From NCBI GenBank assembly GCA_047638395.1, contig JBLIMV010000017.1, positions 33,431 through 97,430 of the forward strand: a stretch of DNA of 64,000 nucleotides. The letters run 5' to 3'. Shown one piece after another: positions 46,640-47,420 of the stretch (within the stretch, counting starts at the first letter, position 1; every line of letters starts with the position of its first letter). The notes beneath the pieces are model-generated. The model saw only the letters and a list, made by a program, of their open reading frames with translations. It was not told where the DNA came from and did not search any database. The translations under genes and the position numbers were made by a program. Source of the stretch: Paracoccaceae bacterium. Its GTDB lineage: Bacteria; Pseudomonadota; Alphaproteobacteria; MPNO01; UBA830.

Positions 46640-47420
46640 AGGGGCTAATCCCGAACCTTGGTCCATATTTGAGCCACTCTGCCTGTCTTTCAATATAAAA
46701 TTATTGTTCATATTAATTCATCCCACGAACAGATTTTTTAAGATCTAATTCGATCTTATGCAAAATTGGATATTGCTTATATTGATCACAATATAATTTT
46801 TTATTATCAATATTATTTTTTATATTTAGCATTTTTGGTTTAATATCATTTTGACGCATTATATGAACGCGGATGCCTTTTTTTGATACGAAATCGAATA
46901 TCTTATAGAGAGGACAATATGCATCATAAATATTGTTGAGGATTGATTTCTCTAAAAAAAGAATCAATGTATTATGGTACTTCCCATAAAAAAAACTCTC
47001 TAACTCAGAATTTTTTTTCATCAATTCTTCTGAATACGCAAAGTAGGAAAAAGAATATTTATGGTCAATTGACAGATCCAAATATTTTTTCTTATTTTTG
47101 ATGTCATTTACAGAATCATAGATCCTATACAAATTAAAATAAGATTTTCCGGGGGTTTTTATTATTGCCGCCATACACGCCTTTAGTGCTTGGTCAAACA
47201 CTATTAAGTTTTTATCGACCCCTTCAGACAATCTCTCAGGGTCACGAGGCGATGCAGCCAGTTCATCGCAAGCAAACTCCAATTGACGCGACTTACTCTC
47301 GATGGCAAACGCAGCATCAGTGAAAACCATCCCGCAGGCCAAAATCAATAATATATGGCCACAAAATATCTTTACTGAAAAAGGAGTCGGATATCTAAAC
47401 ACTTTCATCCCCAACGTCCT
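46640..47420. other. low-GC islet (strongly AT-rich, compositionally foreign) embedded between two GC-rich LLM oxidoreductase genes
   Basis: Long A/T runs and AAA/AAT/ATA-dominated codons are visible. They contrast with the GC-rich sequence immediately on both sides. No tRNA, integrase or obvious flanking repeats were found. Confidence 0.6.
46713..47411 (-). CDS. secreted Lys/Asn-rich hypothetical protein encoded by the low-GC islet
   Basis: The internal ATG (MKVFRYPTPFSVKIFCGHILLILACGMVFTDAAFA) gives a clear signal peptide. The mature protein is about 200 aa and K/N/Y/I-rich. Coding GC falls from the 5' to the 3' end of the gene. Confidence 0.5.
   Translation of the reverse strand, partial: GMKVFRYPTPFSVKIFCGHILLILACGMVFTDAAFAIESKSRQLEFACDELAASPRDPERLSEGVDKNLIVFDQALKACMAAIIKTPGKSYFNLYRIYDSVNDIKNKKKYLDLSIDHKYSFSYFAYSEELMKKNSELESFFYGKYHNTLILFLEKSILNNIYDAYCPLYKIFDFVSKKGIRVHIMRQNDIKPKMLNIKNNIDNKKLYCDQYKQYPILHKIELDLKKSVRGMN

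Follow-up and report, generated by a model that had tools for sequence, protein, structure and literature searches.

A short, sharply AT-rich islet lies between two convergent luciferase-like monooxygenase genes (LLM1 and LLM2) in a stretch of 64,000 nucleotides, here called the window, that comes from a metagenome-assembled genome (MAG) of a marine alphaproteobacterium. We read this islet as an orphan cassette from a toxin locus of the RTX/type I secretion system (T1SS) kind, linked to hlyC (rtxC), and the single intact gene that it carries as most likely an orphan immunity gene. To this reading as a whole we give a probability of about 0.55. Its parts differ in strength. Sequence comparison gives good support to an origin of the insert in an hlyC-linked HINT/RTX locus; the immunity role is put forward with moderate confidence. 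The insert has three recognisable parts, namely the remnant of an acyltransferase gene, an intact variable gene and the remnant of a toxin gene.

Intact loci of this kind are laid out as follows. They begin with a conserved, GC-rich gene for a toxin-activating acyltransferase. It is followed, through an ATGA or GTGA overlap of stop and start codons, by a hypervariable AT-rich gene encoding a small exported or membrane protein, and then by a gene for a large PT-HINT/RTX protein, the N-terminal part of which is also low in GC. Of such a unit the window has only the middle: the last 90–160 bp or so of the acyltransferase gene, then the variable gene in intact form, then some 70 bp from the HINT region of the toxin gene, interrupted by a stop codon.

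The flanking stubs and the loci to which they point

The islet is conspicuous first of all by its composition. Measured in 200-bp windows, the GC (guanine plus cytosine) content is 0.24–0.335 across 46600–47199 and 0.415–0.49 across 47100–47499, both flanks being at 0.55–0.66. In the 64-kb window taken without the islet, the mean is 0.594 (standard deviation 0.041, minimum 0.405); the minimum of the islet lies about 8.6 standard deviations under the mean, and this is the sole dip of such depth. The original prediction, made from the sequence alone, had described a sharp low-GC islet between two LLM genes, and the profile, together with PF00296 matches on both sides, bears this out. Its estimate of some 750 bp describes the AT-rich core correctly, not the full extent of the foreign DNA, which includes inserted flanks, some 160 bp long on the right-hand side and some 240 bp long on the left-hand side. 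These flanks have a host-like GC content and are missing in relatives just as the core is. They contain what the sequence alone could not reveal, remnants of two genes, one of the hlyC family and the other for a PT-HINT RTX-type toxin.

On the right-hand side the stub is that of an HlyC/RtxC-family (PF02794) gene. It sits in a 53-codon open reading frame (ORF; 47405..47566), the TGA of which shares nucleotides with the start codon of the islet gene, as ATGA. The residues CAQKSVLVDLTAPFGGREKAMRAQEGRWG of the stub align with CGDKPVLIDLIAPFGGAEEAMKELERVLG of HlyC-family proteins, and the C-terminus of the 53-codon frame, ...VLVDLTAPFGGREKAMRAQEGRWG, can be set beside ...VLIDLIAPFGGAEEAMKELERVLG, the C-terminus of an HlyC-family subgroup. 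The DNA of the stub is 76% identical over 87 nt to that of L083, a salt-marsh metagenome contig (E 5e-10); 15 of 29 residues are identical to those of P0024, a PF02794 protein; and tblastn with the hlyC product of another locus, L089, matches the window at 47417–47494. In the window, in both units of L083 and in L089, conservation extends to GGGG(A/G)TGA, which comprises the acyltransferase stop and the next start, and collapses right after. A full PF02794 gene was taken to require a domain match of about 127 residues in a protein of about 150–170 amino acids. The 54-amino-acid translation of 47408–47569 has no Pfam match, and only its final 29–33 residues or so align with the family, so that this element is a stub and not a full acyltransferase gene.

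On the left-hand side, about 70 nt are the pseudogene stub of the toxin gene. Their identity is 78% over 68 nt to positions 1274–1341 of L083 and 74% over 70 nt to positions 2723–2792 of L089. The flank matches to L083 have E-values of 5e-10 and 7e-9, that to L089 one of 3e-6. In translation, KKVEDNT*QLYHTLDGRMAPPEGG stands against EKVADETWKLYHAFGVRMAAPEGG, residues 477–500 of the large protein of L089, in a tblastn match with which a three-way alignment agrees; the asterisk is an in-frame TAG where the relatives read TGG. This is, by its similarity, a fragment only and not a HINT/RTX gene. The nature of its parent follows from the L089 protein, which matches TIGR01443 (intein_Cterm) and is homologous to the N-proximal region of WP_267480494.1, a 4415-amino-acid 'calcium-binding protein' encoded by a complete plasmid of Roseibium aggregatum. 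There, a PT-HINT domain (PF07591, 45 bits) precedes RTX repeats (PF00353, HemolysinCabind, 134 bits). The Hint label of the L089 protein had first been guessed from motifs, and was kept after the TIGR01443 match and the Roseibium homology had been found. A word-based search with this protein gave no result.

The closest relative of the islet protein leads to the same kind of locus. The protein P0008, the best small match and the only close relative (31% identity), is encoded on the salt-marsh metagenome contigs L083–L087, which have a GC content of 0.62–0.69 with AT-rich islets at 0.22–0.30. Its gene lies directly after a gene of the HlyC family (PF02794). L083 (1–2945) and L091 (1–4159), also from salt marsh, each contain two tandem units, in which a 5′-truncated hlyC-like gene and one or more AT-rich ORFs are joined by a GC-rich fragment of a toxin gene. 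In these units the copies of hlyC encode 97–101 amino acids, lack the N-terminal 50 or so residues of full-length family members, and are 88–89% identical to one another. Unit 1 of L083 holds a collinear counterpart of the whole window protein, 27% identical and with one in-frame stop, followed by the same toxin fragment. These tandem loci seem to assemble poorly, as they were found only on contigs of at most 4.2 kb.

The layout is found well beyond this pair. A scan of metagenomes with an alignment of HlyC-like proteins gave 46 loci. Among the closer HlyC relatives, the GC content plunges after the acyltransferase stop and recovers 0.7–2 kb further on. From hlyC to the sequence just downstream it falls from 0.70 to 0.17 in L089, from 0.64 to 0.23 in L090, from 0.67 to 0.28 in L095, from 0.66 to 0.27 in L116, from 0.50 to 0.25 in L110, from 0.64 to 0.31 in L115, from 0.55 to 0.27 in L118, and from 0.50 to 0.31 in L098/L100, where the units are in tandem; the dip is milder in Roseibium (0.55 to 0.37–0.45). 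No drop was seen in the more distant relatives L102–L104, L113/L114 and L120–L135. The product of the low-GC gene is always small and exported or membrane-bound, ranging from soluble exported to multi-pass membrane proteins, and these proteins are unrelated between loci, with the exception of the window/L083 pair and of paralogs within L110 and within L098. Even in the window/L083 pair the proteins share 27% of their residues, against 74–78% identity in the flanking DNA. Conserved sequence thus encloses a hypervariable gene, the change from one to the other being abrupt, as befits a cassette. On contigs that reach far enough, the next gene encodes a large HINT or RTX protein, as in L089 (>657 amino acids), L110 (>1195 amino acids; it has a subtilase domain, RTX repeats and cadherin-like domains) and Roseibium (4415 amino acids). 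The low-GC stretch extends over the N-terminal part of this large protein in L089 and in Roseibium. On the Roseibium plasmid, rtxC is followed by an ORF of 111 amino acids, the gene for the RTX giant, and the T1SS genes for an ABC transporter and HlyD, in this order.

Some of these loci have further neighbours that deserve mention. Downstream of the Roseibium T1SS genes (L140 4890–7201; NZ_CP045630.1, 59389–61700) there is a second pair, comprising a low-GC (0.35) gene for a 165-amino-acid protein with a signal-like N-terminus and a gene for a 593-amino-acid protein annotated as having a Hint domain, with no hlyC in front; it may be another cassette of the same system. In two unrelated loci, L090 (7382–8065) and L116 (7563–8255), the group formed by hlyC, the AT-rich gene and a small ORF is directly followed by a gene similar to those of REP-associated tyrosine transposases (PF01797 Y1_Tnp, 1.6e-12 in L090, with a nearly identical N-terminus in L116). 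The L090 group is placed between flgH-like and dksA-like genes.

This recurrence bears on the simplest account of an AT-rich gene in GC-rich surroundings, plain horizontal transfer of an orphan gene from an AT-rich donor (a phage, a plasmid or a low-GC bacterium), with a coincidental similarity of the flanks. Strongly atypical composition and the isolation of P0008 as sole close relative are what such a transfer would lead one to expect. Yet two independent sources have loci of one kind that match both flanks at corresponding positions, with a conserved junction; they are host-like in GC; low GC recurs at the same position in hosts ranging from 0.50 to 0.70; and neither a scan of viral contigs nor tblastn against phages and plasmids gave a match to the islet. 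We therefore hold plain transfer to be very unlikely, and the phage or plasmid remnant that had been listed among the possible identities of the gene finds no support.

The intact gene, its product and the case for immunity

A single ORF occupies the islet, as had been claimed. It begins at the ATG at 47408–47406 and encodes 231 amino acids, in place of the start at 47411 and the 232 amino acids given before. No other frame is open, the five remaining ones having 5–21 stops each over 46713–47170. For 152 AT-rich codons the probability of an open frame arising by chance is about 6.5e-7, and none of 200,000 shuffles was open; we conclude that the frame codes for a protein or did so until a very short time ago. 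A Shine–Dalgarno sequence, AGGAAGGA, ends 8 nt 5′ of the ATG. The NCBI protein MFT7571718.1 (260 amino acids) places the start at TTG 47495 instead, thereby appending 29 residues that are the acyltransferase stub read in a different frame. In the Logan and ENA assemblies the gene is made to begin at the ATG at 47408, which has the ribosome-binding site and agrees with the junctions of the homologous loci.

Composition is not uniform along the gene: the GC content is 0.30 in codons 1–20, 0.43–0.53 in codons 21–80 and 0.18–0.35 in codons 81–231. A GC-moderate 5′ end followed by an AT-rich remainder had been noticed before, and the second and third segments agree with this description, the first 20 codons being AT-rich as well. 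We do not follow the suggestion, drawn from this gradient, that the gene is chimeric. Codons 21–80 specify the hydrophobic core of the signal peptide, the cleavage region and a conserved motif rich in Ala, Pro, Asp and Arg, and the full-length homolog of L083 is collinear and has the same gradient. It is the insert that is composite, not the gene.

The protein looks exported. As had been recognised at the outset, a signal peptide is visible, with a basic N-terminal region, a hydrophobic core and a cleavage site between AFA and IE; the hydrophobic segment in a Kyte–Doolittle profile spans residues 8–38. A lipobox-like LILAC (residues 21–25) is aligned with LLTAC in P0008, the closest homolog, which makes a lipoprotein signal possible. 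Beyond it, a full HMMER search found 19 proteins at E<=1e-3, nearly all covering residues 40–140 or so, and most having Sel1 or tetratricopeptide (TPR) repeats; the matches to Sel1 proteins go down to an E-value of 3e-14 over residues 45–123. The module has the signature CDxLAxxPxDPxRxxxG...AC...R. In an alignment of 11 sequences C47, D48, P54, D56, P57, G63, A74, C78 and R95 are invariant, C47 and C78 being the two conserved cysteines of the module. From this alignment AlphaFold2 (AF2) predicted helical hairpins, with a pLDDT of 82–97 over residues 40–130; from the single sequence its pLDDT was 38.7, which is useless. TPR/Sel1 structures top the Foldseek list, all at E>0.5 and none significant. 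Pfam gave no Sel1 (PF08238) or TPR match at E<=1, and a sub-threshold match to DUF6022 was disregarded. A sequence search of the PDB returned nothing, and a word-based protein search returned the protein's own cluster only. The C-terminal half has a sole relative, the second half of the L083 homolog, with which it shares a CPL...GI+V motif.

How would such a gene work where it now stands? Its transcription probably depends on read-through from the upstream PALP-LLM2 pair, and its translation on its own ribosome-binding site. We infer this mode of expression because the genes share a strand and no promoter- or terminator-like sites were found on the minus strand between LLM2 and the islet gene. 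The product would be exported to the periplasm, possibly lipid-anchored, would fold at least in part as a TPR/Sel1-like repeat containing a disulfide, and would there neutralise a matching toxin secreted by neighbours. Of the functions that had been listed for the gene, an immunity-type protein is the most plausible, in view of its position and hypervariability.

A different role next to the same partner can be imagined, with the protein acting as an effector, as a bacteriocin-like toxin, or as an accessory factor (adaptor or chaperone) of the HINT/RTX protein. The export signal would suit an effector, TPR/Sel1 modules are general protein-binding scaffolds, and gene order alone cannot tell immunity from an accessory role. 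An accessory factor would, however, be expected to be conserved together with hlyC and HINT, while the proteins encoded here differ from locus to locus without any relationship, and the window protein is alone, its partner being missing from the window. As for an effector, neither Pfam nor NCBIfam revealed a catalytic or toxin domain in the protein. Together, these roles seem to us improbable.

Several points weigh against the favoured reading, in which the insert is an orphan cassette with an immunity gene. The case for immunity is one of position and variability; the islet protein has no known cognate toxin; and the HINT/RTX neighbours of the variable genes are no more than putative antibacterial toxins. 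The islet protein matched no family, and no immunity family, in NCBIfam, PHROGs, PADLOC or Pfam. The large protein of L089 has no Pfam match of its own, its HINT assignment being made of a short TIGR01443 match and of the homology to the Roseibium protein. The 64-kb window contains no intact hlyC, RTX or T1SS gene. Purifying selection on the ORF cannot be measured because all available copies are identical, and the in-frame stop in the L083 homolog tells us that such units do decay.

The last two points lead to the main rival of immunity, a relic that is not yet broken. The fragment would have arrived with a toxin locus, or decayed from one, and its frame would be unbroken merely for lack of time, with no function left. 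Both flanking genes are mere stubs, one of them with a stop codon; the L083 homolog has its own in-frame stop; the islet gene has no promoter of its own; and there is no variation among copies that would reveal purifying selection. All this fits a dead relic. Against it stands the fragility of a 231-codon frame at 26% GC, in which the probability of a stop is about 0.09 per random codon. Moreover, a good ribosome-binding site and the ATGA junction have been kept, and the islet is present in all conspecific contigs seen, from several samples. We consider the relic a serious alternative, of which the odds nevertheless remain low, and prefer an orphan immunity gene that is still of use.

The insertion between the two LLM genes

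Related loci were collected by a scan with LLM1, one genome being retained per species, which gave a graded series of marine alphaproteobacterial MAGs. The gene order in related MAGs is that of the window: hydantoinase B, LLM1, LLM2, PALP. In eight related species that share this order the site is empty, the LLM genes being at most 25 nt apart. The two stops overlap in six of them (L003, L004, L005, L012, L013 and L014; 4 nt, CTAA or TTAA, at 2046–2049 in L003), and are separated by 5 nt in L008 and 25 nt in L006, as compared with 1100 nt in the window. The insertion point is the very place where the stops overlap in these six species. Neither LLM gene is disrupted, and both keep their stops. 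LLM1, which converges on the islet, has a C-terminus identical to that of its relatives; LLM2, which is the final gene of the PALP-LLM2 pair and lies upstream of the islet gene on the same strand, ends in ...SAITTG* instead of the ...SAITTGN* of L003, with the loss of one residue. The islet protein is encoded in none of the 80 related loci, which speaks against the conserved ancestral gene that had been envisaged as an alternative, and tblastx and blastn found no match of the insert to these loci or to the remainder of the window. The insertion is, on this comparison, specific to the window's lineage, and the view that the DNA is foreign is upheld by the empty sites. Recent acquisition, also proposed, is not established by them: DNA identity to the nearest empty-site genome (L003) is only 82–86%, and the low GC content is no clock, since it is a trait of the cassette family in every host.

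The gene might instead be ancestral at the site and have been lost in relatives, in favour of which a gene does occupy the same gap, on the LLM2 strand, in the more distant relatives L007 (4569–4877), L009 (7244–7540) and L010. This ORF of about 100 amino acids begins with MAKGYW or MAKAYW and may resemble DUF1330. It is unrelated, with a host-like GC content and no similarity to the insert, and an exact overlap of the stops in six species is unlikely to result from independent precise deletions. Ancestry is accordingly an explanation to which we give next to no credit. The presence of the unrelated ORF shows that the convergent LLM junction tolerates extra genes and that it has gained or lost genes more than once. 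The idea that the GC-rich flanks of the insert are remains of this ORF was rejected, as there is no similarity.

The source of the window being a MAG, and three of five contigs breaking in the islet, one might fear that AT-rich reads were wrongly joined, in assembly or binning, into a GC-rich contig. The same junctions are however found, at 99.5–100% identity, in Logan SRR28416755, Tara Oceans ERZ2783049 and JGI assemblies. Over 20.7 kb the Logan contig does not differ from the window (100% identity), and the Tara Oceans scaffold is 99.5% identical across the islet; the islet protein is identical in the Logan and ENA/Tara assemblies, and its 90% cluster has five entries, from NCBI, JGI, Logan and ENA. 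Contigs with an identical LLM1 all carry the islet or terminate inside it, and partial proteins at contig ends of another MAG tile the same ORF. Because independent assemblies, Tara Oceans included, hold the same junctions, the islet is not an assembly artefact, and we attach hardly any weight to that explanation.

The three contigs that stop within the islet, among five independent ones, are L137 (ending at 4610), L138 (4382) and L139 (3615), and in another MAG the islet gene is divided across two contig ends. These breaks suggest a drop in coverage or difficulties of assembly at the switch of composition. As for the source itself, the MAG is labelled Paracoccaceae at NCBI, and the closest syntenic genomes (L004–L007) are labelled Rhodospirillaceae or Alphaproteobacteria MAGs, which makes the family label doubtful.

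The fragment was inserted at the abutting LLM stops by a route that left no recognisable marks of mobility. The original prediction had reported neither integrase, tRNA nor direct repeats at the flanks, and the searches agree: there is no integrase near the islet and no adjacent tRNA, and a search for repeats found short AT-rich chance repeats alone, with no terminal or long direct ones. Inspection of the junctions by eye showed no good GTTRRRY/RYYYAAC pair of integron attC-like core sites, and an Rfam scan of 45000–49000 returned nothing. A GATTA pentamer present at both junctions could be a 5-bp target duplication or microhomology; this is weak evidence, as the LLM stop codons fix three of its five bases. 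The nearest tRNA gene, a tRNA-Ser (CGA) on the minus strand at 49994–50083, lies 2.4 kb from the islet, past the PALP gene, and is probably unrelated to it.

The features of the region are collected in Table 1. Of the two segments of the insert that gave no significant match, the one next to LLM2 may be further decayed hlyC sequence. Elsewhere in the window, the only other low-GC patch is at 21301–21600 (minimum 0.405). This patch separates two divergent genes, a gene for a 1582-amino-acid protein, probably glutamate-synthase-like (16429..21177, minus), and the gene of a 532-amino-acid exported TPR-like protein (21592..23190, plus); it has the appearance of an ordinary promoter region.

Table 1. 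Coordinates in the window of the insertion, its components and its neighbours
Feature	Position	Strand	Basis or remark
LLM1, luciferase-like monooxygenase, left neighbour, intact	45463..46470	plus	PF00296, 1.3e-49
GATTA pentamer at left junction, overlapping the LLM1 stop TAA	46465..46469	plus	recurs at 47569–47573, overlapping the LLM2 stop
Lineage-specific insertion, 1100 bp, from stop to stop of the convergent LLM genes	46471..47570	.	empty sites in relatives
Inserted GC-rich DNA beside the LLM1 stop	46471..46566	minus	no significant match; missing at the empty sites of relatives
Pseudogene stub of a PT-HINT RTX-type toxin gene	46567..46636	minus	DNA and tblastn matches to L083/L089
AT-rich untranslated spacer past the islet gene stop	46637..46712	minus	GC profile and ORF map
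Intact AT-rich islet gene, predicted exported protein	46713..47408	minus	231 amino acids, six-frame ORF analysis
Lys/Asn/Ile/Tyr-rich C-terminal half, residues 141–231	46713..46988	minus	low AF2 confidence
TPR/Sel1-like helical module, residues 40–140	46989..47291	minus	HMMER, alignment, AF2
Predicted signal peptide, residues 1–35, MKVFRYPTPFSVKIFCGHILLILACGMVFTDAAFA	47304..47408	minus	features visible in sequence
Recognisable 3′ stub of a gene for a toxin-activating acyltransferase, HlyC/RtxC family (PF02794)	47409..47494	minus	alignment to HlyC-family proteins, L083 DNA
Inserted GC-normal DNA, from the LLM2 stop to the acyltransferase stub	47495..47570	minus	no significant match; missing at the empty sites of relatives
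LLM2, luciferase-like monooxygenase, right neighbour	47571..48539	minus	PF00296, 1.1e-52

A possible class of exchanged cassettes and its comparison with known systems

For the source genome taken alone the gain is small: a gene that had been an orphan without explanation can now be recognised as part of a toxin locus, probably retained for protection against neighbours. The wider pattern, which matters more, is that, in several unrelated GC-rich bacteria, hlyC is followed at a precise stop-start junction by a hypervariable gene with a GC content lower by up to about 0.5, and then by a HINT/RTX gene. One may go further and ask whether there is here an undescribed class of T1SS-linked polymorphic toxins, in which the hlyC 3′ end and the PT-HINT domain would serve as recombination arms (a role that we infer for the conserved flanks), AT-rich cassettes would be exchanged between these arms, and orphan immunity genes would spread. 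Each exchanged cassette would then hold the upstream immunity gene and the N-terminal domain of the toxin. We put this forward as a tentative proposal, to be thought of as possible, not as probable. If these are indeed toxin-immunity cassettes, polymorphic toxins would have a further platform in the RTX/T1SS operons with acyltransferases, besides Rhs, contact-dependent inhibition (CDI) and type VI systems. The polarity would be opposite to that of Rhs and CDI, since the immunity gene would lie upstream and the toxin would vary in its N-terminal part. A role would also be found for the numerous 'orphan' hlyC genes of marine Alphaproteobacteria and for their Hint-domain proteins, and extremely AT-rich cassettes exchanged in GC-rich genomes would offer a clean case for study. 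The recurrent architecture, in which hlyC, an AT-rich cassette and a HINT/RTX gene follow one another, merits a systematic survey.

How does the window compare with what is already described? A limited literature search found no description of low-GC cassettes linked to hlyC, which is weak evidence of novelty. Like other small genomic islets, that of the window has an atypical composition, is missing in related genomes and disrupts no gene. It departs from typical islets in having no integrase, tRNA target or long direct repeats, and in that its low GC content is a trait of the cassette family and not the signature of a donor.

The islet protein itself resembles the periplasmic proteins of the Sel1/TPR kind, by its export signal, its N-terminal capping module CDxLAxxPxDP and its predicted helical hairpins. 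It differs from Sel1 proteins in that it stays under the Pfam Sel1 threshold, its repeat-like part is limited to about 100 residues, and its C-terminal 90 residues have no known relatives. Periplasmic immunity proteins made of Sel1-like repeats do exist for type VI phospholipase effectors, for example PA5086–PA5088 of Pseudomonas aeruginosa.

With the hlyCABD operons of RTX toxins the window shares the stub of an HlyC-family gene, and the related intact loci share the RTX calcium-binding protein together with the T1SS ABC and HlyD genes. The classical operons are not known to have a gene between hlyC and hlyA. In contrast to hlyCABD, the partner proteins have an N-proximal PT-HINT domain, and the window itself holds fragments only, without T1SS genes.

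A further parallel is with the cassettes of the Rhs and CDI polymorphic toxin systems (see also the survey by Zhang et al., 2012; PMC3482391). A term search of this survey found no mention of the HlyC family. As in the orphan modules of Rhs and CDI systems, a variable cassette of lower GC content meets a conserved gene of higher GC content at a sharp breakpoint, and orphan copies are headed by the 3′ fragment of a conserved gene. Orphan units may stand in tandem arrays, as they do in L083 and L091, and the cassette proteins are highly diverse between loci, as they are among the hlyC loci. Unlike in Rhs and CDI systems, the conserved upstream piece is here a separate acyltransferase gene (hlyC/rtxC) and not the core of the toxin. 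The arrangement is in fact their mirror image, with the variable gene placed before that of the toxin and with the toxin itself varying in its N-terminal part, toxicity and immunity both being putative. Substrates of T1SS carry their secretion signal at the C-terminus. A reversed polarity, with a conserved C-terminal side and an exchangeable N-terminal one, would for that reason suit them well.

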